A stretch of DNA of 64,000 nt, from assembly GCA_963674965.2 (NCBI GenBank), contig CAXXFL010000006.1:96001-160000 (forward strand). Reading direction: 5' to 3'. Below are positions 19,285 through 49,571 of this stretch, one piece after another (position 1 is the first letter of the stretch; each line of letters opens with the position of its first letter). The notes beneath the pieces were generated by a model that made no database searches, was not told the origin of the DNA, and worked only from the letters and a program-made list of their open reading frames with translations. This stretch comes from a bacterium (GTDB lineage: Bacteria; RBG-13-61-14; DATKZS01). A program made the translations under genes and the position numbers.

Positions 19285-19389
19285 GGCGCAAGATTGATGG
19301 ATTTACCCCATCCGCTCGCGACGCGCCGGAAAATAAAGCGTTTTCTAAATTTATGCTCATTTCTCGAATGGATACGGAGGTCTTCAGTT

Positions 19390-20184
19390 TTGCTTGGCCA
19401 TAAAGGGAAACATCGCTATTCTTTACCGCTTCTTACTTTCTTCGCGGCCATTTTGTTTTCAAGCCCGGCTTCATGGGCGGATGGCCCGGAGAAGCTGACG
19501 GTTTACGCCGCGGCTTCCACCACCAACGCCATGACCGAGGTGGCGAAGCTTTACGAGAAGAAAACCGGGACCCAGGTGGCCTTGTCCTTTGCCTCCTCCT
19601 CGACCCTGGCCAAGCAGATCGAGATGGGAGCGCCGGCCCAGGTTTATCTTTCGGCCAATCCCGAGTGGATGGATTATCTCGAACAAAAGGGACTGATCGA
19701 GCCCGGTGGCCGCGCCGACGTGCTGGGAAACCGCATCGCCCTCATCGCTCCCGCGGATAGCGCGATCGAGGAAGTCAAGATCGAAAAGGGATTCGACCTG
19801 GCCAAAATCCTCGGGGACGGCTACCTGGCCATGGGCGATCCCGACCACGTGCCCGCGGGCATGTACGGCAAGGCGGCCCTCCAGGGCCTTGGCGCCTGGG
19901 AGGCGGTCGAGAAGAAAGTCGCCCGGGCCAAGGACGTGCGGGCGGCCCTGGCTTTGGTGGAAAGGGGCGAGTCCCCTCTCGGCCTCGTTTATACCACCGA
20001 CGCGGCCATCTCGGAAAAGGTCAAGGTGGTGGGATTGTTTCCCGAGGACTCCCATCCACCCATCGTCTACCCCGTCGCCATCGTGAAGGGCGCCGACCTC
20101 AAGGCCTCCATGCCCTTTATTGATTTCCTCAAGACGCCCGAGGCTTCGGCCTTGTTCACGAAATACGGCTTTATCGTCCGTTAA
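19390..20184 (+). CDS. modA: Molybdate/tungstate ABC transporter substrate-binding protein
   Basis: AAAS, FASSSTLAKQIE.GAPA, GDPDHVPAGMYG, VYTTDA; TTG start after GGAGG (19376-19380). Confidence 0.92.
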   Translation: MLGHKGKHRYSLPLLTFFAAILFSSPASWADGPEKLTVYAAASTTNAMTEVAKLYEKKTGTQVALSFASSSTLAKQIEMGAPAQVYLSANPEWMDYLEQKGLIEPGGRADVLGNRIALIAPADSAIEEVKIEKGFDLAKILGDGYLAMGDPDHVPAGMYGKAALQGLGAWEAVEKKVARAKDVRAALALVERGESPLGLVYTTDAAISEKVKVVGLFPEDSHPPIVYPVAIVKGADLKASMPFIDFLKTPEASALFTKYGFIVR

Positions 20185-20882
20185 TGGATTACCTTCGTTT
20201 CAGTCCCGCCGAGCTGGAGGCGCTGAGGCTCAGCTTCAAGGTCGCGAGCGTGGCCGTGATCTCCAGCCTCCCTTTCGGCGTCCTCTCGGCCTGGATAATT
20301 TCCCGGATGACCTTTCCCGGCAAGGCCGTGCTGAACGGGATCATCCACCTTCCCCTGGTCCTGCCGCCCGTGGTCACGGGATACGTTCTTCTGGTCCTCC
20401 TTGGCAGGAAGGGCGCCATCGGGGCGTTCCTGTACGATAAGCTCGGCCTGAGCTTCGCCTTCGACTGGAAAGGGGCAGCCCTGGCCGCGGCGGTCATGTC
20501 TTTTCCCCTCATGGTCCGATCGATACGGCTTTCCTTCGAGGCCCAGGACCGGGGACTTGAAAAGGCCGCCCGCACCCTGGGCGCGGGCCCGGTCAGGGTC
20601 TTCTTTACCGTCACCCTCCCCCTTATCACGCCGGGTATCATAACCGGCCTTATCCTTGCCTTCGCCCGGGGCCTGGGGGAGTTCGGGGCCACCATTACCC
20701 TGGTGTCCAACGTCGAGGGCGAAACCCGCACCCTGCCGCTGGCCCTGTATACTCTTATCCAGACCCCGGGAGGCGAGGACGGCGCCATGCGGCTGTGCCT
20801 GCTGGCGGTCATTCTTTCCATGGCCGCCCTGGCCGCGTCCGAGATCATCACCCATCGCTTCCTTTCCCGGATGGAGGGCTGA
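20184..20882 (+). CDS. modB: Molybdate ABC transporter permease
   Basis: HLPLVLPPVVTG, FPLMVRSIR, FARGLGEFGAT. Confidence 0.93.
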   Translation: MDYLRFSPAELEALRLSFKVASVAVISSLPFGVLSAWIISRMTFPGKAVLNGIIHLPLVLPPVVTGYVLLVLLGRKGAIGAFLYDKLGLSFAFDWKGAALAAAVMSFPLMVRSIRLSFEAQDRGLEKAARTLGAGPVRVFFTVTLPLITPGIITGLILAFARGLGEFGATITLVSNVEGETRTLPLALYTLIQTPGGEDGAMRLCLLAVILSMAALAASEIITHRFLSRMEG

Positions 20883-20885
20883 GCC

Positions 20886-21608
20886 GTGATCGAGGCCAGG
20901 TTAAAAAAGCGGCTCGGAAGCCTCGAGATCGACGCGTCCTTCTCGAGGCCCGGCCCGGGCGTCACGGCGCTCTTCGGCCGGTCGGGCGCGGGAAAAACCT
21001 CGATCGTCAACATGATCGCGGGCGTCCTCCGTCCCGACGCCGGCCGCGTTATCGTGAACGACAAGACCTTGTTCGACTCGGAGCGAAGGATCGACGTTCC
21101 TCCCGAGAAACGGAGAATAGGGTACGTGTTCCAGGACGGCCGCCTCTTCCCCCACGCGTCGGTCGAGAAAAACCTCACTTACGGCATGAAGCTGACGCCG
21201 GCCGGACTAAGGTACGTCGATCTTGGACAGATCGTCGCCCTCCTGGACCTGGGGCATCTCCTCGCCAGGAGGCCGGGCAAGCTCTCGGGCGGAGAGAAGC
21301 AAAGGGTCGCCATCGGCAGGGCCCTCCTCACCAGCCCCCGCCTGCTCCTGATGGACGAGCCACTCGCCTCGCTCGACGCGGCCCGCAAGGAGGAAGTCCT
21401 CCCCTTCATCGCCAGGATTTGCCGAGAGTTCGAAATTCCCATCATCTACGTCAGCCACATGATCGACGAGGTATCAAGACTCGCCGACAAGACCGTCGTC
21501 ATCCATAACGGCAAAGTGGATATTGAAGCCTCGCGCCGAATAGCCGGGAAAGACGGCCCGACGTCCGACTCCGATAAAACGGACGGGTCGCGTGAGAGGG
21601 TATGCTGA
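20886..21608 (+). CDS. modC: Molybdate ABC transporter ATP-binding protein (short, no TOBE domain)
   Basis: GRSGAGKT, VFQDGRLFPH, LSGGEKQRVAIGRAL, LLMDEP. Confidence 0.9.
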   Translation: MIEARLKKRLGSLEIDASFSRPGPGVTALFGRSGAGKTSIVNMIAGVLRPDAGRVIVNDKTLFDSERRIDVPPEKRRIGYVFQDGRLFPHASVEKNLTYGMKLTPAGLRYVDLGQIVALLDLGHLLARRPGKLSGGEKQRVAIGRALLTSPRLLLMDEPLASLDAARKEEVLPFIARICREFEIPIIYVSHMIDEVSRLADKTVVIHNGKVDIEASRRIAGKDGPTSDSDKTDGSRERVC

Positions 21609-34836: not shown

Positions 34837-36522
34837 ATGAACGACGAGACGAGACTTCCCACGATAGACGACGTTGAAAAGGTTGATGATAAAACCATGA
34901 TCGAGCGCATGGAGGATTTCTGGGGCAACGCCTCCCTTACCCCGGCCATCGTGGCAAAGCTCAAGGGCCGGCCCAAGGAGGCGCTGAAAATGGTCCGGCT
35001 TGGCAAGGAGCTTGAACACAGGATAACGCACTACACGGCTATCGAGGTCTGCGCCGCCATCGGAAGCAAAGAGGCCTATAAAGTAATGCAAGAGCTCCCA
35101 GTCGGAAGCCCGTACGAATACTTCTTCAACGTGATCGATCTGGTGAGAAAATCGGGCAAAACAATTGGCGCGGCCATCAATGAGGCAATCCCCAAAGGAA
35201 ATAGAAGAATCAACGGATGGGGTTGGATTGCGTGGCATTACTTAAAGAAGGAGGCCGAGGTTTTCAGACCCAATAAAATGGAGAACTACCAGGCCTGCAT
35301 CAAAGCTTTCCTTTCCACCGCGCAAAATCATATTAAAGACTTAAACGCGTCAAAAAACGAACGGCGAAATGGAGCGGCGGAATATATGGCGACAACCGGC
35401 TGCCCCGGTTTTATTCCATTACTTCAAGAAACTCTCGCGCGTGAAAAGTCGAAAAAAACCAAAGTGTGCATTGTTCAAGCCCAGGCGTATTGCGGGGACA
35501 CTTCGATTATAGAACGGGCGTTATCAATCGCAATGAAGCCAAAAGCCGACAACGAGTCGCGACGAGCCTATTGCCGTGTCCTCACCCAGATAGGCGACGT
35601 GAGGGCCAAAGCCCCAATCCAGAGTTTAATAAAAGATGGGCTGAGCACCCAACCCCAGTGGTACGGGAAAACGATTTTTCCTTATATGCTCCAACTTGGC
35701 CTGGACCCGAAAGTGGCAAAAAGCGCGGCCTATAACTCCGCGATTTCATTTAATGAACATTTCTTTCCGCCCGAATATATCTATATGAAGGTGGATGACT
35801 TTTTATCCAACCCATTATCGGGTTATCAGCTTGCGGGAATACTTCCCGTGCTTTTATGGCATTTCCAGGATAAACCCAATGAAAAAAGGATGACTATCAA
35901 ACACGCGATAAGGCATATAAGAACCTACGACCCGGACGCGCAAAAAGACGTCATCAAGTCGTTAATAAGTGCCCGATATTGCATGTCCTTGATAACCGAA
36001 TGCTGGGATGACCTGGCCGACGAGGCCCGCGTGGAAACGGTCAGGCTGATTAGAAATGAAGCTAAATATGCCGATAAGTTTATTTTTTATTGGCCGGAGC
36101 CCATACTCCAGTTCATGCCCGAGGGCGCTGAAATCATCAAGTTGCTCCTTGCATGGAAAAATGATAAGGCGCTTGCGTCTCTTTTTAAGGCGATTGCCGC
36201 GGCCCCCGCGTATTTCTTTGCGCTTGACGATAAACCCATTATCGAGGCCTGTCATGAAGCGTTGGGCAATAAGTCCCAGCCGTTGAAGCTCGCGGCCCTC
36301 TCGGCGCTCTCGGAGCTTGGCTCTAAAGGGTCCATTAAAGTAATCAAAGAAATGGACGACGAAAGACCCAAGGTAAAAGAGGCCGCTAGTAAGGCGTTAG
36401 CCGACATTCCCGGAAATCAAGAACGGCGGGCAAAGCAAAAAAAAGAAATACATAAAGTCAAAACGCGAGTTATCAGGCAAAATTTAATTGAATCGACAAG
36501 GAGCTTGTTATGGAGGCGATAG
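34837..36522 (+). CDS. HEAT-repeat protein, lower-GC paralog of the next gene
   Basis: Alpha-helical HEAT-like repeats; shares WGNASLTP, YTAIEVC, EAEVFRP, ECWDDL and AW.NDKA with 36510..38531. Confidence 0.75.
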   Translation: MNDETRLPTIDDVEKVDDKTMIERMEDFWGNASLTPAIVAKLKGRPKEALKMVRLGKELEHRITHYTAIEVCAAIGSKEAYKVMQELPVGSPYEYFFNVIDLVRKSGKTIGAAINEAIPKGNRRINGWGWIAWHYLKKEAEVFRPNKMENYQACIKAFLSTAQNHIKDLNASKNERRNGAAEYMATTGCPGFIPLLQETLAREKSKKTKVCIVQAQAYCGDTSIIERALSIAMKPKADNESRRAYCRVLTQIGDVRAKAPIQSLIKDGLSTQPQWYGKTIFPYMLQLGLDPKVAKSAAYNSAISFNEHFFPPEYIYMKVDDFLSNPLSGYQLAGILPVLLWHFQDKPNEKRMTIKHAIRHIRTYDPDAQKDVIKSLISARYCMSLITECWDDLADEARVETVRLIRNEAKYADKFIFYWPEPILQFMPEGAEIIKLLLAWKNDKALASLFKAIAAAPAYFFALDDKPIIEACHEALGNKSQPLKLAALSALSELGSKGSIKVIKEMDDERPKVKEAASKALADIPGNQERRAKQKKEIHKVKTRVIRQNLIESTRSLLWRR

Positions 36523-38531
36523 AACGGATAATCCACATCCGCTCGGACCTGTCCGATTTTTTAAGCGGCGGTCTTGGCAACCTGGACCGCGCCCGCGTCG
36601 AGGAGATAGCCGGCGCCCTTTCAGACCTGAACCTGAAAAAACCCGCCAGGATGGTGTCGGACCTTTTGGAGACGACCGACCCGTCCTCCCGGTTCGAGGG
36701 CTTCGTAAAGGTCATCCAGACCCTTCGCCAGGTGGAACTGCGCTCGCTCAAGCCGGCCAGGGATGAGGCGCCCGACCTCGTTCCCCATCCCATGTACGGC
36801 GGCTTGTATATCGATCGCTCCCGCCTGCCGGACAAGTTTAGTGACGTTTCCGAGGTCATGTCCCTTCCCGACCGGTTCGTTAGGGACTACGCCCTCTTCA
36901 AGTACATGGAGGACGTGGATGACCAAACCATGGCCGAGCAAATGGAATACGTCTGGGGCAACGCGTCGCTGACTCCCATCGTGGCGTCCAAGCTCAGGGA
37001 CCGGCCCGAGGCCGCGCTGAAGCTTGTAAGTCGCGCCCTGACCATCCATCAAAAGATCGTTTATTACACGGCCATCGAGGTATGCTCGGCCTTGGGGGGA
37101 GAAGCGGCCTACAAGGCCATGAAGGAGCTTCCGGCCGAGATGCCGGAGGATTACTTTGAAGAAGTGGACTATGATGCGGTCGCCAGGGAGCACGAGATAA
37201 GCGTCGAGCAGGTCATGATGATTTGCGACGCCGAGCGCCGGATAGACGCCTCGGGCTGGGAATGGCTCGGGTACCATTTTCTGAGGAGGGAGGCCGAGGT
37301 TTTTCGCCCGGACCTCCTTGGTGAATACGAAAAGAAAATCAAGGTGACCCTCGCCGCCAATGAATCGCATATTAACGACCTGATGGCCTCGTCGTCGAAA
37401 AAGCGTTTCCAAGCGGCGGAATACCTCCGCGCCGCCGGCTATCCTGGATTTATCTCCCCCCTGCGGGCCGCCCTGGCCCGCGAAACCGATATAAAGGTGG
37501 AGCGTGAACTGATCATAGCCCTTGGGTCAAGCGGGGACTTCGCCATTATTGAGCAGGCCCTGGCGGCGGCTGACCCGGATGATGAAAAACATTACCTGCG
37601 CGGAGCCTACGCGGAGGCCCTGGCCAAGCTGGGCGACGTTAGAGGCAAAGGATTTATTCTCGATTCATTCAAGGAGGGCCTGTTCCACGAAATCGAGCAA
37701 TATGGATTGTCCATTCTGCCCGACTTCATCCGCGCGTGCGTGGATCCCGAGGTGGTCAAGAAAACCGCCACCCTTGGCGTCCTGGGGCGCAGGGGGGTTA
37801 TCCCCCCCAAGCTGGTTTACAAGGCGGTGGATGAGATCATGACTGAGCCTGTCCCGGCGGAACGCCTCGAGGGCATGCTGTATCTGTTTTCTCAATACTT
37901 CCGGAAGGGCCCGCCCCAGGAAGGTCTCGCGATGATTTTGGGTCACGCCTCAAGCCACGCGCGGGCCTATGAACCCGGGGACCAGGTCAGAGTGGTCAAG
38001 TCCCTTATAAAGTCCAGACCGATGACGCCGCTTGTCGTGGAGTGCTGGGATGACCTTTGCGAGGAGGCCCGCTTGGAATCCATCAAGCTCCTCAAAGCCG
38101 GCGCCAAGGACTTCCTCAAGCTTCAGGAAGGCTCGGCGAAGGACATAGAGGCGATCACTCCCGGCGCGGAGCGAATAGTCGCGCTCTTGTGCGCCTGGAG
38201 AAACGACAAGGCAGCCGCGGCCTTGATGAAGGCGGCCGCCTCCACGCCTTCTTATTTTATCGTCATGGGAGACCAGGCCCTGATCGAGCTTTGTATTGAC
38301 GCCCTTAACTCCGGCGGGCAGGCCCAGGTGATCGCGTCCCTCGGGGCCCTGGCCGAGCTGGCCGCCGAGGAGGCGAAACCCGTAATCGAGGCCCTGGACG
38401 TCTCGAAACCCAAGGTCAAATACGCGGTGGAAAAGGCCAAGATAGGCTACGCCTTGAACGAGGAAAGGCGAAAGAAACTTATACCGGAACCGAAGAAAGG
38501 CCTCATGAACTGGTTAAAGGATAAATTATGA
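36510..38531 (+). CDS. HEAT-repeat protein
   Basis: HEAT-like repeats (IIALGSSG, AEALAKLGD, LGALAEL); coupled to its neighbours by overlap. Confidence 0.78.
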   Translation: MEAIERIIHIRSDLSDFLSGGLGNLDRARVEEIAGALSDLNLKKPARMVSDLLETTDPSSRFEGFVKVIQTLRQVELRSLKPARDEAPDLVPHPMYGGLYIDRSRLPDKFSDVSEVMSLPDRFVRDYALFKYMEDVDDQTMAEQMEYVWGNASLTPIVASKLRDRPEAALKLVSRALTIHQKIVYYTAIEVCSALGGEAAYKAMKELPAEMPEDYFEEVDYDAVAREHEISVEQVMMICDAERRIDASGWEWLGYHFLRREAEVFRPDLLGEYEKKIKVTLAANESHINDLMASSSKKRFQAAEYLRAAGYPGFISPLRAALARETDIKVERELIIALGSSGDFAIIEQALAAADPDDEKHYLRGAYAEALAKLGDVRGKGFILDSFKEGLFHEIEQYGLSILPDFIRACVDPEVVKKTATLGVLGRRGVIPPKLVYKAVDEIMTEPVPAERLEGMLYLFSQYFRKGPPQEGLAMILGHASSHARAYEPGDQVRVVKSLIKSRPMTPLVVECWDDLCEEARLESIKLLKAGAKDFLKLQEGSAKDIEAITPGAERIVALLCAWRNDKAAAALMKAAASTPSYFIVMGDQALIELCIDALNSGGQAQVIASLGALAELAAEEAKPVIEALDVSKPKVKYAVEKAKIGYALNEERRKKLIPEPKKGLMNWLKDKL

Positions 38532-39724
38532 GCAAACCGTCGGAGTTCACGCGGGAGCAAAAGGACGCGCTGCTCCGGTGGCGTCTGGTCCTGGGCAAAA
38601 AAGCTCAGGAGACCGATGAAGGCCTTGCCCTTGGCGGCCTGGGCTCGGCCTGGGACGGCTTGCCCGGACTTCCGGGCCTGTCCGGCGTTGACGATTGCCT
38701 GGAGTTCGTTTACGGCGGTGGAGAAAGGAGCGCGGGCCTGGGAAGCGGCTCGCCCTATATCCCCAAGTGGCTCGGAGACCTTCGCGAGTATTTCAGCTCC
38801 GACACGGTGGCCCTGGTCCAAAAGGACGCCATCGAGAAACGGGGACTGACCAGACTCCTTTTCGAGCCCGAGACCATGGTCATGCTGGAGAAGAACGTGG
38901 AGCTCGTCTCCACCCTGGTGGCCATGAAAAACCTCGTGCCCGACGGGGCCAAACAGGCGGCGCGCGACATTATCAAGGAAGTCGTCGAGGACATTAAGAA
39001 GCGCCTGGAAAACGACGCGCGTCAGGCGGTGGTGGGAGCGCTCAGAAGGAACCGCCATTCGCCCCTGGCCGTGGCCAGGAACATCGACTGGAAGCGGACC
39101 ATCAGCCGGAACCTAAAGAACTACGACAAGGAGCGCAAGGTCATCGTGCCCGACCGTTTCTTCTTTTGGGCCAACGAACTGAAAAAACGCGAGTGGAGCG
39201 TGATTATCCTGGTGGACCAGAGCGGCTCCATGGGTCCCTCCGTGGTGTACTCGTCGATCATGGCCGCCATATTCGCGAGCCTGGGCGTTCTTAAAACCCA
39301 TCTGGTCTTTTTCGACACCGAGATAGCGGACGTAAGCGACATGTTACACGACCCGGTTGACGTCATCTTCGGCGCGCAGCTTGGAGGCGGCACGGACATT
39401 GCCCGGGCCGTGGCCTATGGCATGGACAAAATCGAGAGGCCCGACCGGACCATCTTCGTGGTAATCACCGACCTCTACGAGGGTGGAGACCAGGAGACGC
39501 TGTTGAATCATTTCGAGCGCCTGGCCGAGAGCAAGGTCACCTGCCTTTGTCTCCTGGCCCTGAATGAAGGAGGGACGCCGGGCTTTAATCACGATTTGGC
39601 CAAGCGGACCAGGGCCAGGGGCGTTCATACGTTTGGGTGCACGCCGAAAAAACTCACGGACGTCATGGAAAGGATTCTGTCCGGGAAGCCCTTCGACGAC
39701 CTGGCCAGGGAGGATATAAAATGA
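38528..39724 (+). CDS. vWA-domain protein (CoxE/YehP-like)
   Basis: RWRLVLG, IDWKRTI..NLKNY, MIDAS VDQSGSM, QLGGGTDI, ITDLYEG. Confidence 0.9.
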   Translation: MSKPSEFTREQKDALLRWRLVLGKKAQETDEGLALGGLGSAWDGLPGLPGLSGVDDCLEFVYGGGERSAGLGSGSPYIPKWLGDLREYFSSDTVALVQKDAIEKRGLTRLLFEPETMVMLEKNVELVSTLVAMKNLVPDGAKQAARDIIKEVVEDIKKRLENDARQAVVGALRRNRHSPLAVARNIDWKRTISRNLKNYDKERKVIVPDRFFFWANELKKREWSVIILVDQSGSMGPSVVYSSIMAAIFASLGVLKTHLVFFDTEIADVSDMLHDPVDVIFGAQLGGGTDIARAVAYGMDKIERPDRTIFVVITDLYEGGDQETLLNHFERLAESKVTCLCLLALNEGGTPGFNHDLAKRTRARGVHTFGCTPKKLTDVMERILSGKPFDDLAREDIK

Positions 39725-41070
39725 GCGGGGAATCCAAGCCCAAAAAGCTGACCATGGATGAGATCGGGAAAATCACCGATCCGGATTATCTGCGCCGGGG
39801 CCTCGAGTATCATGACGGCAAAATGGTGCTCAACCCCGCCAGGCACGGGAACAAGCTCTACGCCGAGGTCAAGGGCGGCGGGAAGAGCAACTACAAGGTA
39901 ACCATCACCTTCGAGGAAAAAATAAGCGCCAAGTGTACGTGTATCTCCGCCCGCCGGACCGCCTACTGCAAGCACGCCATCGCGGTGATGGTGGGATGGA
40001 GCAAAACCCCCGAGGCCTTCGTGGAATCCGAGGCCCCGCCTTTCACCGAGGCGGCCGCGGGCGGAAAAAAGAAGAAGGCGAGCGTGAAAAAGGGCAAGAC
40101 CGAGACCAGGGAAATCCAGGAGAAGGGAATCGTCGCCATCGAGAACCTCTTGACGGACGCGGCCATGGCAGGCCTTTCCGCCATCACCAGGGAGCGCGTC
40201 GAGCTGGTCCGCGAGCTTGCCGAGGAAACCAGGAACTACAAGCTGGTCCGATTATCCGCCGCGCTCCTGAAATTCGCGGACGGGCTTTCCGGGGCGTCCG
40301 GCGGGTCGGACTTTTCATTGTCCCGCTACGCCGAGGACATGACCGATATCCTTTTCACGGCCAAGGCTATTCGCAAATACTGGAAGGAAGGCGCGGAGGA
40401 CGAGAGGGTCCTGGAGGACCTGATCGGAAAGACCTGGCAAAAGAAAAGCCTTCCAATTAAAAAGGGCCTGAAAATGATCGAGGTCGAGTACAAAAGCTAT
40501 GAAACCCCCGATAACTTCCGCATAGATCAAAGCGTCTTCTTCTGCCTTGGCGACGGCTCCTTCTATTCCGAGAAACAGATACTGCCTCCCCATCTGAAAA
40601 ATCGCGAGGCCCCCAAGCAAAGCTACGCCGGAAAGGTGATACGCGCGGGAGCGGCTTACTTTTATCCGGGGTATCCTCCCGCCCGGATAAGGATCGAGGA
40701 GGTGGAGGAAAACCCGGTGGACGACGAAACCATGGCGACCCTGGAGGGAATGGCCGAGAAAGACTGGGACAAGCTGATAGATGATTACATGGAAGGAAGA
40801 CGGGACGTCTTCGCTCCCCTCTTCAGGCCGGCGCTGCTTCGCCCCGCCAGGGTCATATGCAAAGAATCGGGGCTCGCGCTGAGCGATTCAAATGGGACTC
40901 TCCTTCCCATGCCGCTCTCCTCCGAGCGCTCGGCCGGCCTGTGCCGGGAACTTAGCGGTGGAGAACTTATAACGCTGTTCGGGAATATCGTCGTCGGCGA
41001 CCTCGGACTTGAATTCGAACTTATGTCAGCCGCGATCGAAAGTTACTCCGGCCCAAGGATTGCGTATTAA
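39721..41070 (+). CDS. SWIM zinc-finger protein (YehQ-like)
   Basis: RG.EY...V.G....Y.V followed by CTC...YCKH; ATGA overlap with the vWA gene. Confidence 0.85.
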   Translation: MSGESKPKKLTMDEIGKITDPDYLRRGLEYHDGKMVLNPARHGNKLYAEVKGGGKSNYKVTITFEEKISAKCTCISARRTAYCKHAIAVMVGWSKTPEAFVESEAPPFTEAAAGGKKKKASVKKGKTETREIQEKGIVAIENLLTDAAMAGLSAITRERVELVRELAEETRNYKLVRLSAALLKFADGLSGASGGSDFSLSRYAEDMTDILFTAKAIRKYWKEGAEDERVLEDLIGKTWQKKSLPIKKGLKMIEVEYKSYETPDNFRIDQSVFFCLGDGSFYSEKQILPPHLKNREAPKQSYAGKVIRAGAAYFYPGYPPARIRIEEVEENPVDDETMATLEGMAEKDWDKLIDDYMEGRRDVFAPLFRPALLRPARVICKESGLALSDSNGTLLPMPLSSERSAGLCRELSGGELITLFGNIVVGDLGLEFELMSAAIESYSGPRIAY

Positions 41071-41145
41071 TATCGACAAGGCGCGCGCGTTTGCCGTCAA
41101 CGGGGATCAGGCACGCTATGAAAGAAAAGATTGAGGAGGAATGAG

Positions 41146-41610
41146 ATGGGTATAGATTATCGTATCTACTCGGCGTCTGAAGCGGAGTTGGAGAAAGTGG
41201 TCAAAGGAGAACAAGACATTTATGAATGGTTTCATGAATGGAGAAACCGCCGTGACAAGGAGGATGAGATCGACCTGGACAAGGACGGATGCATAGCTTA
41301 TGAAGTGGTGCGTAACGTTGCCGAGCTTTTCAATATCAAGGCGCTCGACGGTTTTCCCCATAAGGGCTCAATACCGTTGGAAGAATACAACGCGTTGAGA
41401 CCTGAAAAGGTCCGGGAACTGGCCGCTTGTCTCGCCGGGCTCGGCCGGAAGGAATTCGATAGAGGTTTTGCCGCGGCCGATAAGCGTGATGACGATTATT
41501 ATTTCACCGAGGAAGGAAGTGAGGACTTCTATAGATGTTTTTATCGGCCCATGATAGATTTTTACCTGAGGGCCGCCGAGCGGGGCAAAGCCATATTGAT
41601 GTTTCCCTGA
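41146..41610 (+). CDS. DUF1877/YfbM-like protein, paralog 1
   Basis: MGIDY start, IDLDK, PEKVRELA, DFYLRAAERGKAIL; GAGGAGG RBS. Confidence 0.65.
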   Translation: MGIDYRIYSASEAELEKVVKGEQDIYEWFHEWRNRRDKEDEIDLDKDGCIAYEVVRNVAELFNIKALDGFPHKGSIPLEEYNALRPEKVRELAACLAGLGRKEFDRGFAAADKRDDDYYFTEEGSEDFYRCFYRPMIDFYLRAAERGKAILMFP

Positions 41611-41655
41611 AACACGGCGAGGTAGCCATGAATGAGCGAGTCAGTGAGAAAATAA

Positions 41656-42135
41656 ATGGGTATTGATTATGAATTGTATATCATTTCCATGGAAGAATTC
41701 GATAAGATTATGGCCGATCCGGATGATTGGAAGGTATATGGTGAGATTTACCGGGAAAAATGGAGCACGGAATCGCATCTCGACATGGTAAGAGTTATGG
41801 CCCGGACCATGTTCGACGTAATGAACAACTTAAGCGAGTTGTATGGCCTCGATGCCTTAAAGGATTTCCCCCATTTCAAGGAACGAGTCCTTTTGGATAA
41901 GGAAAGCTGCAATTCTTTCTATAAGCCGGACAAGGTCCAGGCGGTGGCGGAAGACCTGAAGCGGGTCACAAGGAACCAGTTCGACAAGGCCTACGCGGAC
42001 GCCGATAAATTCTTTGACGATGACTACACCGAGCAAGGGCGGGAACGTTTCTTTAAATTGTTTTTTTCCGAAGCGGTCCAGTTATTCAAAAGGGCCGCGG
42101 AAAAGGAAGCGGGCGTTATATATTTCCGCGGCTGA
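41656..42135 (+). CDS. DUF1877/YfbM-like protein, paralog 2
   Basis: MGIDY, HLDM, KPDKVQAVA, LFKRAAEKEAGVI. Confidence 0.65.
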   Translation: MGIDYELYIISMEEFDKIMADPDDWKVYGEIYREKWSTESHLDMVRVMARTMFDVMNNLSELYGLDALKDFPHFKERVLLDKESCNSFYKPDKVQAVAEDLKRVTRNQFDKAYADADKFFDDDYTEQGRERFFKLFFSEAVQLFKRAAEKEAGVIYFRG

Positions 42136-42594
42136 CGATTCTCCCGTTCGGCGTCCGAGTTTCACTCCGGCTTTAAATAGCCTTTTATCAGCCGCCCGAT
42201 CGTCACGAGCCGTTATGGACAAGCCCCATTTGGAGTTGTTTGAAACGGTCGGCGCCTTGGGAGACATGAAGGGCGAGCCGGCCCTTGAACATGCCATATG
42301 AGGGATTGAACGAAAAGATGGCGATGAAAAGCCGGGAGAGTCCATTCTTCCTCACCTTGTAAAGAAGATAGCCGCGACCTTCGCGAACGCGACCGCTGAG
42401 GAATTCGCGCGGGTCCACGAAAAACATGGCCCCAAGGAGTATGAACTGGACAATGACCATCGCGCTTCCTATCTTGATGATCTTTCGAAACGCCGCCGAA
42501 AAAGGTCCCCGTATTATATCTGTGATGGAGTGAGGAAGTATCTCAGGCGAAAAGGAAACGGACCGACGCTAAGCCAAAAGTAAGGAGCGAGGCA

Positions 42595-43074
42595 ATGGGT
42601 ATTGAACACGATTTGTATATCATTTCAATGGAAGAATTCGACAAGATGATGGCCGATCCGGATGATTGGGACGTATATGGTGAGATTGTCGAGATCAAAC
42701 GGAATACTGAATTGCACCTTGACATGGGCAAAAGTTCCGCCCTGACGCTGTTTTGCGTAATGGAAAATTTAAGCGAGTTGTATGGCCTCGACTCCTTGAA
42801 GGATTTCCCCTATTTCAAGGAACGGGTGCTTATGGATAAGGAGCACTACCATTCTTTCTATAAGCCGGACAAGGTCCAAGCGGCGGCGGAAGACCTGAAG
42901 CGGGTGAACGGGAAACGGTTCGACAAGGCCTACGCGGGCGCCGATAAATTCCATGACGACGATTACACCGAGGAAGGGCGCGAACGTTTCTTTGAATACG
43001 ATTTTTCCGGAGCGGTCGAGTTTTTCAAAATGGCCGCCGAAAAGGGAGCGGGCGTCATGTACACCTCGGGATGA
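42595..43074 (+). CDS. DUF1877/YfbM-like protein, paralog 3 (recent duplicate of paralog 2)
   Basis: Same length as paralog 2 with long identical stretches (LYIISMEEFDK, NLSELYGLD, FYKPDKVQA). Confidence 0.65.
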   Translation: MGIEHDLYIISMEEFDKMMADPDDWDVYGEIVEIKRNTELHLDMGKSSALTLFCVMENLSELYGLDSLKDFPYFKERVLMDKEHYHSFYKPDKVQAAAEDLKRVNGKRFDKAYAGADKFHDDDYTEEGRERFFEYDFSGAVEFFKMAAEKGAGVMYTSG

Positions 43075-43096
43075 TGCTCCACTTAGCGTCCGCGAC

Positions 43097-44140
43097 TCAT
43101 GCCGGTTTTAAATATCCTTTTATCAGCCGCCAGATCATGACGTCCCGGTTGTGTTTTTCGTCGCGGGTACGTATGGCCAGGATCGGCTCGGAGGGGTGGA
43201 AGCTTATTCCCACTCCCGGCCAATTGGCCACATAACCGGGAATCGGGGGGAGGGGCTCGAAGTTTTCGCATTCCCACGTCAGGACCTCGTCACCCTTGTC
43301 GGGGTTCGATCGGTCACGCGAACCCGCCGCGAGGAACCCGCCGTCCGAAGAAACGGCCGCGGTCCTTAACGTCACGTTCTCCAGTTCGATATTCCTGATA
43401 CAGTCTCCCGATTCAACGTCCAGAATTTTTATCGCGCCCTTGCTCGAGCAAAAGGCCAACCTCTTGCCGTCCGGAAACCAGTGCAGACAGTTCTCGCCCC
43501 TCGCGTGTCCTTTCAGTTTACATATTTGCTCGCCGGTCTTCGCGTCCCAAAGCCTCGCGTCCACCTCCTGGGAACAAGACGCGATCGTCGCGCCATCGGG
43601 CGACCACTTGACGCATAACGGACCGTCCAGGTGACCTTCCAACTCGCCAAAAAGCTCGCCGCTCAGGGGGGCCTTCAACTTGACGCAGGCGTCTTTATGG
43701 ACGCAGGCAATAACCTTCCCGTCGGGCGACCACTCGATCTCATCAACGCCCTGATGACGGGCGACCGTCTCGCCCGACGCGACGTCATATATGTGGAGAC
43801 TTTCCGCCTTGAAGTCGGACCCGACGGCCGAGGCGGCCACGTATTTTCCGTCCGGGCTCCATTCGACCCATCCTATGGAATCCGCCCAACTGGCGCCCTC
43901 CCGCTCGAGGAATCGAACCAGTCCTCCGATCTCGCAGTCCCAGATACCCACCCTCGCGTCACCCGAGGCCGTTGCCAGCATGACGCCGTCGGGCGACCAG
44001 GAAATGGCGTTCACCCGGGTCCCCGGGGAGAAGAAGACGCCGTCCGGCTCCCATCCGGTCGCGCTTTTATAATTGCCGTGATCGGCCAGGGTCTTGATCA
44101 GCTTATGCCGAATATTCTTTCTTCCTTTGTCAGCGGTCAT
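43097..44140 (-). CDS. WD40-repeat beta-propeller protein
   Basis: Repeated WSPDG...ASxSxD...WD and LxGH motifs. Confidence 0.88.
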   Translation of the reverse strand: MTADKGRKNIRHKLIKTLADHGNYKSATGWEPDGVFFSPGTRVNAISWSPDGVMLATASGDARVGIWDCEIGGLVRFLEREGASWADSIGWVEWSPDGKYVAASAVGSDFKAESLHIYDVASGETVARHQGVDEIEWSPDGKVIACVHKDACVKLKAPLSGELFGELEGHLDGPLCVKWSPDGATIASCSQEVDARLWDAKTGEQICKLKGHARGENCLHWFPDGKRLAFCSSKGAIKILDVESGDCIRNIELENVTLRTAAVSSDGGFLAAGSRDRSNPDKGDEVLTWECENFEPLPPIPGYVANWPGVGISFHPSEPILAIRTRDEKHNRDVMIWRLIKGYLKPA

Positions 44141-44174
44141 AGTTTGCTCCCGATCGAGTTAAGCAAGCGGCTTG

Positions 44175-44636
44175 TCATGAGATAATATAGCCCATCCCGT
44201 CGCCGCCGTCAGCCGCCTTTATGAACAGGTCCATCATGGGACGGAAGTAATCGTCATAGAGCTGCCGTCCATCGTTTTCCAAAAGGAACCCATAACTGTG
44301 TGGGTCGGCGGTCAATATGGCCTTCTTGTACATGTCGATCGTGATTTTTTTAAAAGCCGCCGCGACCTCCTGGACTTTTTCCGGGCTGAAATAGTAACCG
44401 TCGTTCTTGACATGGATGAAGTCCACGTGGGTAAACAACACAAGCGGTCCCAATCCATACAGTTCGCCTATCTCGTGCGCCACGTTGAAGGCCACGTCTC
44501 CGTACTTGTAAAGGTCGACTTTACGTTCTTCAGGTATGGGGTAAGTGCCCTCCAGATATACAACGGGCTTTTCTCCATCGTATCCCTCGGTGACCTGGTC
44601 CTCACTGACCCTGTAGAACATGTAGGTTATTGACAT
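44175..44636 (-). CDS. DUF1877/YfbM-like protein, paralog 4
   Basis: MSITY, VDLYK, ELYGL, SPEKVQEVA, RPMMDLFIKAADGG, matching paralogs 1-3. Confidence 0.6.
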   Translation of the reverse strand: MSITYMFYRVSEDQVTEGYDGEKPVVYLEGTYPIPEERKVDLYKYGDVAFNVAHEIGELYGLGPLVLFTHVDFIHVKNDGYYFSPEKVQEVAAAFKKITIDMYKKAILTADPHSYGFLLENDGRQLYDDYFRPMMDLFIKAADGGDGMGYIIS

Positions 44637-44790
44637 CTACAATCCCTCGTTAGCAGTATAGTTTATCGAGGAGCATCTTCCAAAGTCCCATATTGCACGG
44701 CCTCCGAATATTTTCACTCTCCCCAGCGAGCATACCGCCTGGACAAATCCGTTATGGTTAGGGTGAGTTCGAATCCCTGATATAAAAGGA

Positions 44791-45221
44791 CTAAATCTTT
44801 CTGTCCAACGTCCGGTACCGCGCGGCCTCGGATAGGTGGGCGACCTGGATATCCTCGGCGCCCTCGAGGTCGGCGATGGTGCGGGCGACTTTGAGGACGC
44901 GGGAGTGGGCGCGGGCGGACATGCCGAGCTTGTCGACGCACCGCTGCAATAGCGCGTGTTCGGCGTCGTCCACTTTGCAGTAGGTCCGTATCTGCCTCGA
45001 GGCCATCTCGGCGTTGCACCTGGCCCGGGAGCGGGCGAAGCGATTCTTCTGGACGTTCCGGGCCGCGTTGACCCTGGCCCGAACCGACTCGGAGGGCTCG
45101 CCGCCTCGCTCGTCCGACAGCTCGCGATAGTTGACGGCCGGGACCTCGACGTGGAGGTCCACCCGGTCGAGCAGAGGCCCCGAGACGCGCGAGTGGTAGC
45201 TCCCGATCCGGCGGGTCGAGC
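44791..45221 (-). pseudogene. Duplicated 3' fragment of yifB/comM (direct repeat of 48042..48472)
   Basis: Offset 3251 bp; 44961-45171 is identical to 48212-48422; the flanks are diverged; no start codon or N-terminal region. Confidence 0.9.
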
Positions 45222-48200
45222 GGGGGAAATCGCTCTGCTAAGATATTGAAAGAATTTAAAGATTACTTCGATTCGATTTCGCAAGATGAGCCGTAAAGTA
45301 TCTTGAATATGAAACTTGCCCCGCTCGAGATTAATGGAAACCTTGATGGCCTCCAATTGAAGATCATTTGGCAATGAGGTCGTTGCACGAATTTGTTCAA
45401 CGAAAACATTACGGTTATTCTGGTTTTGAGGGTAATATATATTAGAGACTGAATGAACCCAACGGCTGGGGCCAAATTTGTGAACGCGTGGTTAGTCGGA
45501 TCAATTAATAAAAAAGATTGAACTCGGGGTTTTTCATGAATGAAATAAAACCAGTGGTATGTAGCATGTGCGACCTCGCCTGCACTCTGGAGGCCCACGT
45601 GAAGGACGGGAAGCTGGATCGATTGGCCGGCTTCAAGGATCATCCGCTCTGGCCGAACGTATTCTGTATTAAACCCGCGAACGCGCAAGACTGGTTTTAT
45701 AATAAACATCGTCTTCAGCATCCAATGAAGAGGAAAGGAAAAAGGGGCGCTGATAATTGGACCCGGGTAAGCTGGGAGCAGGCGCTCGACGAAATTTCTG
45801 AACGCCTGAAAAAGATAGTTGACGAGCATGGACCTGAATCCTTCGCCTGCGCGACCTCGGAACATAACTGCCAGGTAGCGAGCGGCGCGACGCGTCGTTT
45901 TATGAATCTTCTGGGAAGTCCGAATTACATCAGTGGGACCTCGATGTGCATGGGAAATACGGCCGCCGTCAACGGCATGACCTATGGGGGGTATCCTTTC
46001 TCGGATTTTGAACATACCCGCTGCATCGTGTATTTCGGGCATAATCCCAAGCCGAACGTCTGGGCCGGGGAATATAAGCGGCTCAAGGCCGCCCTTGACC
46101 GGGGCGCGAAACTGATCGTCATGGACCCACGTAAAAGCCACTCCGCGAAAATGGCCCACCTGCACCTTCAGCTAAGGGCGGGCACGGACGCCGCGATGTC
46201 TCTGGGATGGTTGAACGTGATCGTCTCGGAGGAGCTTTATGATAAACGATTTGTCTCGGAGTGGTGTACCGGTTTTGATGATTTAAAGAAACGGGTGGAG
46301 GAGTATCCGCCCCCGCGCGTGGAAAAAATAACGGGCGTTTCCAAAGACCTAATACGTGAAGCCGCCATAATGTACGCCACGAATACCCCGGGAGTCATCC
46401 CCTGGACGTGCATCACCGACCAGCAGAAAAACAGCACCTCCGCGCTTCGTTGCCAGGCCATTTTGAGAGCATTGACCGGAAACCTCAACGCTCCGGGAGG
46501 CGACGTTATCCTTTCGCCCAACCCGTTGATAATCTCCGAGTCGGAACTGGAACTTCACGAAGTACTTCCCCAGGATAAAAAAGACCTGCAACTCGGCGCA
46601 CAGGCTCACCCGGTAATGACTTACCGCGGCCAGAAGGCGCTTAACGATCCTCGTGGCAAAGTTTTCGGCATGCCATATATCAACATCTGCAAAGGACAAT
46701 ACATGGCCCATCCACCCGCGGTATTCAGGGCCATGCGAGAAGGCGATCCCTATCCTGTAAAAGCCTTTTTCTCCGTTGCCAACAACACGCTCATGCAGTT
46801 CGCCAACCAGCGGGGCATTTATGAAGCGCTCAACAATCTCGACTTGTTCGTGGTCAATGAAATATTCATGACGCCCACCGCGCAACTGGCCGATTACGTG
46901 CTTCCTGGAGACAGCTTCCTGGAACGTGACGCTCTATACGGGGCGTGGGACTGGGTCAGCAGTTACATGGTTTCCCGGAAAGCCATTGATCCCCCCGGTG
47001 AATGCAGGGACGTTTATTACTTCTGGCGCGAGATCGCTGTTCGTATGGGGATGGAGGAGCGCTTCCCCTGGAAGAACCTTGAGGAACTCTACGATTACAG
47101 GGTTCACAAAACAGGTTTGACCTGGAAACAGTTGTCCGATAATTTCCCCTTGTTTCCCTCTGTGCCGCCAACTGCGGCTAAATTCGCGCCCCTTGTTTTA
47201 AAAACGCTGAATGGAATGGGCCTACTCGGGAAAATTCAATCCCTGGCCACGTCCGTGATGCGAGGCAAGAGAAAAAAATGGGAAACCTTCGAGCGCGCCG
47301 GCGACAGGAAGCGAGCGGAAAAATATCTGGACAAGGCTTCCTTCGCGCCGTATCCCCACAAGAAGCTCGGCTTTGCCACTCCCAGCGGAAAGGTCGAGTT
47401 ATCTTCCAGCATCCTCGCGGACCTCGGATTCGATCCGCTGCCTTATTGGTCGGATATTGATGATACCGGCGACCCCTCCACCGATGAGTTCCCCTTGCAA
47501 CTCTTTATCGGTTTGCGTGAGGACGGATATTTCAACACCGTGGGACGCCATGTCGATAAATTGCGGGAGCGCAATCCCGAGCCGCGGGCCATTTTGCACG
47601 CCGAGACCGCGCGCAAGTTCGGAATCGAGGACGGCGCCTGGATTTATGTCGAAACCAGTTGGGGCAAGGTGCAGATGAAGGCTAAATTAAGCGATGACAT
47701 TCTGCCGGACCTTGTCAGGGTGCCCCATGGATGGTGGAAACCGGAAGAGGCCAAGGGCGAGCCGGGACTTTCCGGCGCATGGAAATATTCCGACGGCATC
47801 CTCCTCGATGATAACCCCGCCCACCTGGACCCCGAGCAGGGACTGCCGGATTTGCGCGGCGGCAGAAGATGTCGAGTGCGCCTGATGGAACAGTAAGGAC
47901 AATTTTCATAGGAATTACTTTTCTTGCGGAAATAAAGTTGTGAATAAAAATGACGTCTGAAGAAATTTTATGCGGCAACATTGGAAATCGGCCAAGATTC
48001 GGGGAGAGATCATAGATTTCCAGAACCTTGGATAACCGACCTTACATTTTCCTGTCCAGCGTTCTGTATTGCACGGCCTCCGACAAATGGGCGACCTGAA
48101 TGCTTTCTGAGGCTTCGAGGTCGGCGATGGTGCGGGCGACTTTGAGAATCCTGGAGTGGGCGCGGGCGCTCATGCCCAGGCGGTCCACGCATTTCTGGAG

Positions 48201-48472
48201 GAGGGCGTGTCCGGCGTCGTCCACTTTGCAGTAGGTCCGTATCTGCCTCGAGGCCATCTCGGCGTTGCACCTGGCCCGGGAGCGGGCGAAGCGATTCTTC
48301 TGGACGTTCCGGGCCGCGTTGACCCTGGCCCGAACCGACTCGGAGGGCTCGCCGCCTCGCTCGTCCGACAGCTCGCGATAGTTGACGGCCGGGACCTCGA
48401 CGTGGAGGTCCACCCGGTCGAGGAGAGGCCCCGAGATGCGCGAGCGGTAGTTCTCGATCTGGCGGGTCGAGC
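45222..48472. mobile_element. Small integrase-free island/cassette inserted at the yifB/comM 3' end
   Basis: Bounded by a ~430-bp direct repeat of the yifB 3' end; carries one cargo gene with AT-rich flanks. Confidence 0.6.
45536..47896 (+). CDS. Acetylene-hydratase-like W/Mo-bisPGD enzyme (DMSO reductase superfamily)
   Basis: C9-x2-C12-D13-x2-C16 and later FCIK for the [4Fe-4S] cluster; RRFMNLLGSPN...MCMGNTA, IPW...TDQQKNS, ATPSGKVEL, GLRED, RVPHG.W, LDPEQGLPDLRGG. Confidence 0.8.
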   Translation: MNEIKPVVCSMCDLACTLEAHVKDGKLDRLAGFKDHPLWPNVFCIKPANAQDWFYNKHRLQHPMKRKGKRGADNWTRVSWEQALDEISERLKKIVDEHGPESFACATSEHNCQVASGATRRFMNLLGSPNYISGTSMCMGNTAAVNGMTYGGYPFSDFEHTRCIVYFGHNPKPNVWAGEYKRLKAALDRGAKLIVMDPRKSHSAKMAHLHLQLRAGTDAAMSLGWLNVIVSEELYDKRFVSEWCTGFDDLKKRVEEYPPPRVEKITGVSKDLIREAAIMYATNTPGVIPWTCITDQQKNSTSALRCQAILRALTGNLNAPGGDVILSPNPLIISESELELHEVLPQDKKDLQLGAQAHPVMTYRGQKALNDPRGKVFGMPYINICKGQYMAHPPAVFRAMREGDPYPVKAFFSVANNTLMQFANQRGIYEALNNLDLFVVNEIFMTPTAQLADYVLPGDSFLERDALYGAWDWVSSYMVSRKAIDPPGECRDVYYFWREIAVRMGMEERFPWKNLEELYDYRVHKTGLTWKQLSDNFPLFPSVPPTAAKFAPLVLKTLNGMGLLGKIQSLATSVMRGKRKKWETFERAGDRKRAEKYLDKASFAPYPHKKLGFATPSGKVELSSSILADLGFDPLPYWSDIDDTGDPSTDEFPLQLFIGLREDGYFNTVGRHVDKLRERNPEPRAILHAETARKFGIEDGAWIYVETSWGKVQMKAKLSDDILPDLVRVPHGWWKPEEAKGEPGLSGAWKYSDGILLDDNPAHLDPEQGLPDLRGGRRCRVRLMEQ

Positions 48473-49571
48473 AGGTGCAAGAGTGTTTCGGGTCCCCCAG
48501 ATATCCGCAGGGACAGGGGTTCATGGCGGCCACCAGCATGAAGCGGGAGGGATAGGTGATCGAGGCCACGGCCCGGCTGATGGTAACCAGGCCGTCCTCG
48601 AGCGGCTGCCGCATCACCTCGAGCACCTGCTTTTTGAACTCGGGAAGCTCGTCCAGGAAAAGGACGCCGTTGTGGGCGAGGCTTATCTCTCCCGGCTTGG
48701 GTATCTGTCCGCCCCCGATCAGGCCCGCGTCCGAGATGGTATGGTGGGGCGACCGAAAGGCCCTGGTGGCGATAAAGGGCTTGTCCTTCGAGAGGCGCCC
48801 GGCCACCGAGTAAATCTTGGTCGTCTCGAGTGATTCCTCGAAGGACAGGTCGGGCAGGATGGTGGGCAGCCTCTTGGAGAGCATGGTCTTGCCCGAGCCG
48901 GGAGGACCTATCATAAGAAGGTTGTGCCCTCCCGCCGCGGCTATCTCGAGCGCCCTTTTGGCGTGCTCCTGACCCCGCACGTCCGCGAGGTCGTGCTCGT
49001 AAACCCGCGAGGAATCGAACAGGGCGTCCACGTCCACCTTGGCCGGCTCGATTTGTGTCTCACCCCGGAAAAAACCCACCGCCTGGGCCAGGGTCGCGAC
49101 CGGATATACGGCCAGGCCGCCTACCACCGCCGCCTCGCTCGCGTTCTCATGCGGGACTAAAAGGCCCTTGACGTTTCTTTTCTTCGCCTCCACCGCCGCG
49201 GGCAACACCCCGGGAATGGAGCGAACCACGCCGTCAAGCGCCAGCTCGCCCAGCACCCAATAATCATGGAGGGCCGAGGCGTCGATCATGCCGTAGGCCC
49301 CCAAAACCCCGAGGGCGATGGGCAGGTCGTAGGAGGCCCCTTCCTTCTTGACGTCGGCGGGCGCCAGATTGGCCGCAATCTGAAAGGAGGTGGGGAAAGG
49401 ATACTCGCTGTTGGTGATGGCCGAGCGCACGCGGATGCGGCTTTCCTTTACCGCCGCGTCGGGCAGGCCGACGAGCTGGAACAGGAAGTTGCCCGGTACC
49501 AGGTCAACCTCGACGTCCACGGGAATGGCGTCCACCCCTAGGACCGCCGCGCTCTGGACCCGGCTCAGCAC
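48042..49571 (-). CDS. comM: YifB/ComM Mg-chelatase-like AAA ATPase
   Basis: [72 protein letters not shown]. Confidence 0.93.

Follow-up and report, generated by a model that had tools for sequence, protein, structure and literature searches.

A putative stand-alone relative of acetylene hydratase encoded by the single gene of an insert at comM

Introduction

The closest described counterpart of the protein treated here is the acetylene hydratase (AH) AhyA of Syntrophotalea (Pelobacter) acetylenica, known from the crystal structure 2E7Z, and to our knowledge only one AH has ever been purified. Its substrate pocket is said, after work by Seiffert in 2007, to be ringed by the hydrophobic residues Ile14, Ile113, Ile142, Trp179, Trp293 and Trp472. 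Five of these six residues are named in PMC7970554, and a 2025 review (PMC12096430) names Cys9, Cys12, Cys16 and Cys46 as ligands of the [4Fe-4S] cluster, describes Asp13 as specific to the AH subfamily and Cys141 as strictly conserved, and gives the D13A variant as inactive. AH-like families have already been described across many phyla, and the spread of acetylene use among microbes is presented as an open question, according to the accessible parts of PMC10100899 and PMC7858054. Here we describe an AH-like gene at positions 45536-47896 (+) of a 64,000-nucleotide stretch of bacterial DNA (contig CAXXFL010000006.1 of assembly GCA_963674965.2, positions 96,001 to 160,000), hereafter called the window.

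The 786-residue product of this gene, P0001, shares with AhyA the four-domain MopB fold, as predicted, together with the cluster motif, Asp13, Lys48, Cys141 and Trp179/293/472, and both proteins are without a signal peptide and a partner subunit. P0001 differs from AhyA in having Leu14, a His at position 113, a Met at position 142 and a predicted helical insert of 60 residues, and in belonging to a separate lineage.

The setting of the gene recalls a second class of described systems. Certain integrative elements enter a gene at its 3' end and supply it with a replacement tail, and their derivatives without a recombinase are termed cis-mobilisable. Genomic islands, e.g. AbaR in Acinetobacter, are known to use comM as a target. 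The insert that carries the AH-like gene resembles such elements in the direct repeats of the target 3' end that flank it, in the intact target, in its foreign composition and in a payload that is cargo only. Unlike them it holds a single gene, and no recombinase or transposase domain, integrase or relaxase was found in it or near it (18 open reading frames scanned, 34.8-55.5 kb). The repeat is also unusually long, 438 bp with an identical core of 211 bp, a length that fits homologous (Campbell-type) as well as site-specific recombination.

Results and discussion

The open frame of P0001 contains all three MopB domains (PF04879, PF00384 and PF01568; Fe4S4, molybdopterin and molybdopterin guanine dinucleotide (MGD)-binding domains). 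In a phmmer search of all chains in the PDB, AH (2e7z_A) was the top match with an E-value of 4.3e-213 and 713 bits, the runner-up being thiosulfate/polysulfide reductase (2vpw_A, E 3.5e-63). BLASTP against P0404, a near-identical copy of the crystallised AH (see below), gave 335 identities in 786 columns with 74 gaps, i.e. an identity of about 43% over all alignment columns, gaps counted. No NCBIfam model scored above its cut-off for P0001, which therefore has no curated equivalog. The AlphaFold2 model, built from a 59-row alignment, has a mean pLDDT of 94 and a pTM of 0.94, and in a Foldseek comparison with the PDB it matches 2e7z with TM scores of 0.89 (query) and 0.96 (target) and a root mean square deviation (rmsd) of 1.8 Å, while other MopB structures reach query TM scores of at most 0.75 at rmsd above 5 Å.

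The residue numbers of P0001 equal those of AH at the N-terminus, and from about residue 105 to 330 residue n of P0001 corresponds to AH n+3. The cluster cysteines C9, C12, C16 and C44 align with AH Cys9, Cys12, Cys16 and Cys46, and K46 with Lys48. The original prediction, made from the DNA sequence, named the catalytic Asp and the Cys metal ligand as the marks of an AH-clade enzyme, and in the alignment to 2E7Z both are in register: D13, directly after the cluster ligand C12, falls on Asp13, and C138 (SMCMGNT) on Cys141 (YMCIGNT). The blocks quoted in that prediction are all present in the translation (C9-S-M-C12-D13-L-A-C16, FCIK at 43, RRFMNLLGSPN, SMCMGNTA at 136, NVW at 174, IPW at 288, TDQQKNS, GAWDW at 469, LFIGLRED and LDPEQGLPDLRGG), and the Met that it placed at the Ile following the ligand Cys is indeed there, C138-M139 corresponding to Cys141-Ile142. 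In the pocket ring W176, W290 and W471 equal Trp179, Trp293 and Trp472, and the other three of the six positions differ, Ile14 being Leu14, Ile113 being His110 and Ile142 being Met139 (I14L, I113H, I142M). I14L and I142M are conservative and I113H is non-conservative. Over AH positions 13, 14, 48, 113, 141, 142, 179, 293 and 472 the signature of P0001 thus reads D-L-K-H-C-M-W-W-W.

The I113H change had been overlooked in the original prediction, and so had a block of about 60 residues (545-606, codons 47168-47353, +), which falls in a gap of the AH alignment after AH residue ~543 and has no counterpart in AH. AlphaFold2 predicts the block to be helical (545-548, 551-560, 564-587 and 591-596) with pLDDT values of 86-96. 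In the group of close relatives of P0001 (hereafter the P0001 clade) the surrounding segment 540-612 is 71-73 residues long in all 16 rows compared; in 14 of 15 other family rows it is 11-13 residues long, and in the remaining row 35. Since the insert is found in all 16 clade members and in none outside, it marks the P0001 lineage.

Only eight residues precede the first cluster Cys, and because this Cys is residue 9, P0001 has no Tat leader. No gene for an FeS or membrane partner adjoins the AH-like gene in any of the ten loci described below, so the original prediction held as regards both leader and partner subunits, and we propose that P0001 would be a soluble cytoplasmic single-subunit enzyme. 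Compared with five relatives at measurable synonymous divergence (dS), the ratio of nonsynonymous to synonymous rates (dN/dS) is 0.08-0.15, and purifying selection acts on the gene. Another study's sediment RNA library holds a contig of 266 nt that is identical to 47632-47897, which establishes presence in such a library, though not transcription, and is a weak hint of expression.

A word-indexed search with P0001 returned 3489 proteins at E ≤ 0.001 among 8000 scored candidates, and an exhaustive search of 50%-identity representatives returned 1780 at E ≤ 1e-30. Among the 120 matches listed, P0002-P0011 are 67-88% identical to P0001 and about 790 residues long (P0011 is partial), after which the identity is 54% or less. 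Conservation was counted over 254 aligned proteins, namely those of 640-860 residues among the 270 collected. Asp13 is conserved in 10/10 rows of the P0001 clade, in 107/108 of P0012-P0120 (one gap) and in 6/135 distant representatives; the corresponding counts are 10/10, 108/108 and 9/135 for Trp179, and 10/10, 108/108 and 36/135 for Trp293, and a Cys stands in the AH Cys141 column in 118/118 family rows. Asp13 is by these alignments a family mark common to thousands of sequences, and no rarity. The best 120 matches to P0001 show 36 different pocket signatures, and the commonest signature of the family, D-I-K-W-C-A-W-W-[F/L/W/Y], occurs, for example, in the aerobes Maricurvus, Trinickia, Cupriavidus and Zavarzinia.

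The scores of family members against 2e7z run from 951 bits (L012 and P0065) through 838 (P0012), 762 (P0017) and 713 (P0001 and P0019) to 646 (P0121) and 607 (P0123), and by the PDB scores of subclade members a Clostridiaceae-type group is nearest to AH. Genuine AH was not among the best 120 matches, the 150 representatives or 80 of the 593 genome loci. A search with P0065 yielded P0404 (730 residues), which scores 1708 bits over all 727 residues of 2e7z and is essentially the crystallised AH, since this score equals the self-score of a 724-residue protein. Its signature, D-I-K-I-C-I-W-W-W, occurs in no other sequence examined. In P0405, a protein with 81% identity to AH, positions 113 and 472 are Tyr and Cys, which suggests that a polar aromatic residue at position 113 can occur next to real AH.

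For the main tree (IQ-TREE in quick mode, LG+C20, SH-aLRT supports only) 52 rows were chosen by hand from about 230 family sequences to represent each subgroup. The Asp13 family is supported at 100, and inside it there is an "aerobe-type" clade of 12 rows (98) and a branch of 34 rows that contains AH and the P0001 clade (95). This branch is a trichotomy of P0012-P0018, the P0001 clade (8 rows, support 100, stem 0.36) and a clade of 21 rows (support 100), in which the pair of AH and P0405 (stem 0.51) is the sister group of proteins of the Clostridiaceae, Coriobacteriia and Acidaminococcus types. The P0001 clade and its neighbours were recovered unchanged by FastTree with 172 rows and in a quick tree of 40 rows that did not include P0404. 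The earlier claim of a true AH-clade enzyme therefore stands in part: P0001 groups with AH inside the Asp13 family and inside the 34-row branch, and it lies outside the smallest supported AH clade, as a separate lineage of the trichotomy. On this evidence P0001 is a true member of the AH subfamily, in the half of the tree that holds AH, and we are highly confident of the membership itself. It is a further member of a large AH-like family already recognised in the literature; a literature search gave no title on an insert-bearing clade or on a comM-linked AH gene, which is not proof of absence.

The other members of the major branch of P0001, i.e. the P0012-P0018 group (one from a "Deltaproteobacteria bacterium") and the Clostridiaceae, Coriobacteriia and Acidaminococcus types, are uncharacterised. 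They share with P0001 the residues Asp13, Cys141 and Trp179/293, a Met or other hydrophobic residue at 142 and anaerobic hosts, and P0012-P0016 have Tyr113/Met142 as in most of the P0001 clade. They differ in lacking the 60-residue insert, the Clostridiaceae type having about 23 extra residues at the same place. Putative AHs have been reported, in the accessible part of PMC7858054, in a Coriobacteriales genome from an acetylene-fed enrichment. The "aerobe-type" proteins (Asp13-Ile14-Trp113-Ala142; Maricurvus, Trinickia, Cupriavidus, Zavarzinia and Bradyrhizobium), which are 45-50% identical to P0001 and likewise uncharacterised, also share Asp13, Cys141 and Trp179/293, but belong to the other main branch, with a Trp113/Ala142 pocket and no insert. 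More distant MopB enzymes that have AH as nearest characterised relative, according to the available parts of PMC7028382 and PMC9516567, carry out redox or sulfur-transfer chemistry and, unlike P0001, have partner subunits or fused domains. One of them, MES (ergothioneine synthase), is 27% identical to AH in the part of PMC9516567 available, and was set aside as a model for P0001 at this identity.

The AH-like gene lies beside comM/yifB (48042-49571, −), which encodes a Mg-chelatase-like AAA ATPase (PF13541, PF01078 and PF13335) and is intact. The last 438 bp of comM are doubled in direct orientation, the copies lying 3251 bp apart, and only these two copies of the comM tail occur in the genome. 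The right repeat (48042-48480, −) is the 3' end of the intact comM. The left repeat (44791-45229, −), identified by tblastn to the ComM C-termini of relatives, is a displaced and truncated comM 3' end (codons ~365-509) that is without its own start and lacks the conserved Cys residues at its 5' edge. Its 123-codon open frame (44791-45162, −) matches the ComM C-terminus of four related genomes and is identical to resident ComM at 112 of 123 positions. The 2.8-kb insert between the repeats consists of the AH-like open frame and two AT-rich spacers, with no other gene: one spacer reaches from the comM fragment to the gene start (45230-45535, GC 0.39) and presumably holds the promoter, and the other from the gene stop to the comM stop (47897-48041, GC 0.38). 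The AH-like gene has a GC content of 0.546, and 0.65 at third codon positions, as against 0.64 and 0.84 for comM. The gene had been described before as the sole cargo of a mini-island, and the flanking comM repeats put this on firmer ground than composition alone; we have very little doubt that the insert is real. The scar is that of a natural one-gene island without a recombinase, and not a new principle.

The two comM tails differ by zone. The 5'-proximal 57 nt are 84% identical, the left copy lacking the conserved cysteines (dN 0.223, dS 0.067); the core of 211 nt is 100% identical (44961-45171 = 48212-48422; dN and dS both 0); and the 3'-terminal 170 nt are 75% identical (dN 0.148, dS 1.13). 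Since dS in the terminal zone exceeds 1 at a dN/dS of 0.13, the two tails must have diverged as working genes in different lineages, and the same values rule out decay after a local duplication. Orthologues of resident comM with 71-75% identity are present in 4/4 genomes of the host's family, and in the surroundings of comM in these genomes the only shared gene is comM itself. The right tail is closer to the relatives in both diverged zones, and the left tail has a host-like GC content of 0.66 versus 0.60 for the right. We tentatively favour the view that the left tail is the original host tail in decay and that the right tail was brought in. No Rfam family matched in 44600-48200 and hence no molybdenum cofactor (Moco) riboswitch, so that a riboswitch was dropped as a candidate. 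The promoter scan was empty on the + strand, and promoter and terminator scans were at or below the expectation from shuffled sequence; the downstream spacer 47897-48041 has a fold z-score of -2.5.

Members of the P0001 clade were compared at ten loci, i.e. the window, the genome G003 of the host's family (71% identity to P0001), a Spirochaetota metagenome-assembled genome (MAG; 67%) and, from metagenomes, seven contigs (70-90%). The window has no neighbouring gene in common with any of the other nine. The DNA likeness to the closest relatives (80-88% for DNA and 83-90% for protein) is confined to ~45531-47912, with 67 bp of additional upstream likeness in one of the close-relative loci. The neighbours are different at each locus and include valyl-tRNA synthetase, nadC and birA; kdpAB; a TetR regulator and a nitroreductase; and a histidine kinase. 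Among 41 genomes sampled around the host, the clade is carried by the host and G003 only. The AH-like gene travels as a single unit, and the horizontal acquisition suggested by the original prediction is well supported by its being the sole gene of a small insert of foreign composition and by the likeness among relatives being limited to the open frame.

Fucosidases aside, the sole recurring neighbours in the ten loci are homologues of IS200-like Y1 transposases, which occur in two loci at 0.3-7 kb from the AH-like gene (L097 8706-9674, with an additional DnaA-C helix-turn-helix domain, and L085 2279-3238). An open frame 59 bp upstream of the gene in L093 (785-1282) matches the L097 protein weakly and in part (30%) and has no Pfam match, and an IS91-type Y2 transposase is found 2 kb upstream in the Spirochaetota MAG (L009 2-1186). 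These transposases are possible vehicles of single-gene movement, chance association being the alternative. In two metagenome loci with no other likeness the AH-like gene adjoins a gene for alpha-L-fucosidase (L090 3364-4296 and L094 4631-5956). The one in L090 covers positions 151-345 of the 345-position Pfam profile and starts 57 bp past the AH-like frame, which looks as if the AH-like gene had inserted into a fucosidase gene.

As to the capacity of the host, the original prediction had proposed a search of the genome for aldehyde oxidoreductases, and four genes of the aldehyde:ferredoxin oxidoreductase (AFOR) family were found, together with five matches to the aldehyde dehydrogenase family, four of them full-length and one partial. 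The genome has at least five further MopB genes, one with an in-frame TGA. A modABC-type operon for a molybdate/tungstate ABC transporter (19246-21608, +), with a permease, an ATPase and a binding protein that scores above the modA cut-off, is located 24 kb upstream of the AH-like gene and is unlinked to the insert. The best match to MobA in the genome is below the curated cut-off, and there was no match in the genome to WtpA, a tungstate binding protein (TupA was not searched for). Protection of nitrogenase from acetylene finds no support, since no nifH match in the genome is above the cut-off. Overall, the host is capable of cofactor synthesis and could also oxidise acetaldehyde; none of these genes is linked to the AH-like gene.

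The best Pfam "Molybdopterin" match of the genome lies outside the window (G000:C3:524187-525695) and is a frame of 905 codons with one in-frame TGA, probably a selenocysteine enzyme of the formate dehydrogenase type.

Our tentative reading, which we place slightly short of an even call, is that P0001 is an AH-type enzyme with acetylene as substrate and that its gene arrived by recombination at the comM tail. P0001 would bind one [4Fe-4S] cluster through Cys9/12/16/44 and would hold a tungsten- or molybdenum-bis-MGD cofactor through Cys138, the metal being one we infer. By analogy with AH, a metal-bound water, held and activated by Asp13 beside Cys12, would add to a small unsaturated substrate in a pocket ringed by Leu14, His110, Met139, Trp176, Trp290 and Trp471. 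Acetylene, giving acetaldehyde, would be the single most likely substrate, and the aldehyde could then pass to the four AFORs or the aldehyde dehydrogenases of the genome. The gene would have arrived horizontally on a segment of ~3.25 kb together with a truncated comM 3' end, and this segment would have recombined with resident comM inside the 211-bp stretch, so that the comM tail became duplicated on either side and comM stayed intact; either a single crossover of the Campbell type or site-specific recombination catalysed in trans may account for this.

Several points weigh against this reading. We know of only one enzyme of the whole AH family that has ever been characterised, and for this reason the transfer of the AH function to P0001 is an inference. 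The P0001 clade is not nested with AH, the path between them amounting to ~1.7 changes per site (summed branch lengths). Among the sequences examined the exact AH pocket (Ile14, Ile113, Ile142 and Trp472) occurs in P0404 only, and in P0001 Ile113 is replaced by His. Position 472 is variable within the P0001 clade (W, M, V, Q, S, A and H), which would argue against one fixed small substrate, and the clade-specific 60-residue insert may affect an access funnel of the AH type, which in AH opens between domains I, II and III. One family member, P0400 (919 residues), has flavodoxin-like/FMN-reductase domains (PF02525 and PF03358), which may hint at redox chemistry in some members of AH's own branch; P0400 is 59% identical to P0065, keeps Asp13, Cys141 and Trp179/293, and carries the flavin-type domains at the N-terminus, judging by its start. 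No acetaldehyde-handling gene is linked to the AH-like gene in any of the ten loci. With no recombinase at hand, the mechanism of insertion is read from the scar alone, and the short-word unitigs of the sequencing runs, taken by themselves, fit an integrated form and a circle of 3251 bp equally. Given the ring changes, the variability at 472, the insert and the single assayed member, P0001 is best left a candidate for AH in the strict sense (EC 4.2.1.112), a tungsten-dependent enzyme that turns acetylene into acetaldehyde and works only in the reduced state.

A possible though rather doubtful alternative is that P0001 has the same fold and water-adding chemistry and acts on a different small unsaturated compound (candidates are substituted alkynes, nitriles or isonitriles, cyanide and allenes), the His or Tyr at 113 and the clade insert adapting the pocket or funnel. 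Such a substrate is suggested by the difference from AH at three of six ring positions, where His110 adds a hydrogen-bonding group, by the variation at 472, by the restriction of the insert to 16/16 clade members, by the long stem of this separate lineage, and by the 36 signatures among the best 120 matches, which suggest many substrates. However, Asp13, Cys141, Trp179, Trp293 and, in P0001, Trp472 are all kept, Leu14 and Met139 are conservative, P0405 has a polar aromatic residue at 113 at 81% identity to AH, and no neighbouring gene points to an alternative substrate. It is also conceivable, and in our view improbable, that the likeness to AH reflects ancestry only and that P0001 is a redox enzyme, e.g. 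a dehydroxylase or reductase, that receives electrons from a partner whose gene lies elsewhere. The redox-capable [4Fe-4S] cluster and Lys46 (AH Lys48) are retained, P0400 has its flavodoxin-like/FMN-reductase Pfam domains, PMC7028382 gives catechol dehydroxylases as AH's closest characterised relatives, and the review cited above (PMC12096430) argues, in the text available, that AH itself may run hidden redox steps. Yet no electron-transfer partner adjoins the gene in 10/10 loci, solo movement into unrelated genomes is easier for an enzyme that needs no dedicated partner, and Asp13 is rare outside the AH subfamily (6/135 distant representatives).

The last alternative concerns the integration itself, which may be an artefact of assembly, the AH-like gene residing on a free 3251-bp circle or in another strain and having been threaded into comM through the shared 211-bp stretch; we consider this very unlikely. 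Four sequencing runs were examined as short-word contigs or unitigs, which break at the repeat, and the stretch is present in two of them (X1 and X2), both from one sample. These two runs split the locus at the repeat, and the 211-nt core forms a unitig of its own with roughly twice the depth (42 versus 18-23 in X1), so that either path through the graph is allowed. Gaps in coverage in the runs X3 and X4 carry no weight. However, the assembly has 7 contigs and the one that holds the window is 1.25 Mb long, which suggests that the reads were of sufficient length to span 438 bp; the AH unitig has the depth of its flanks in both runs (23 and 15.3, with flanks of 18/16.2 and 17.6/15.3); and even a circle would carry the comM tail and would still imply integration at comM. 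No joint skipping 3251 bp, as expected of an empty site, was seen in the four runs, in which contigs break at the repeat. Joints from 44886, 44901 and 45174 to ~48500-48634 were rejected as an empty site, as they skip 3459-3618 bp and have sides of 20-41 letters, and are taken as comM of other organisms.

In the preferred reading, that of an AH-type enzyme, P0001 is a good candidate for acetylene use by a stand-alone AH relative. It is a clean test case, in which all catalytic and metal-binding residues are kept, purifying selection acts and no neighbouring genes are needed, in a host that has aldehyde-oxidising tungsten enzymes. P0001 would reveal if the Asp13 signature predicts acetylene hydration outside the reference lineage, and would be informative on the effects of the Ile113-to-His change and of the 60-residue insert. 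One may go further and speculate, although we regard it as unlikely, that the clade with the insert represents an "alkyne hydratase cassette", self-sufficient and made up of one gene, which passes between sediment anaerobes that are not related, in the present case by recombination with the comM tail. The cassette would be retained for feeding on trace acetylene or a related small alkyne or for protecting metalloenzymes from it, the helical insert forming a gate or docking surface over the funnel. If this were true, the turnover of acetylene would be an accessory trait that is mobile and far commoner than the few cultured acetylenotrophs suggest.

Other features of the window

Outside the comM repeats there is a stretch of low GC content (41131-44636, 0.47-0.57), which may be a separate variable region downstream of the original comM end. 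It contains three tandem DUF1877 paralogues of 159 residues (+), two of which are 82% identical over 300 nt, a fourth, weak DUF1877-like open frame (44175-44636, −) and a WD40 beta-propeller protein (43097-44140, −). Upstream of this stretch (34837-41070) the window encodes two large proteins with HEAT repeats, a VWA protein of the CoxE-like type and an open frame of 477 residues (39637-41070) that has no Pfam family and no match in the four related genomes. The comM orthologue of G003 (G003:C154:42879-44405; L086 12001-13527) has two in-frame TAG codons, which could reflect a pseudogene, an assembly error or recoding.

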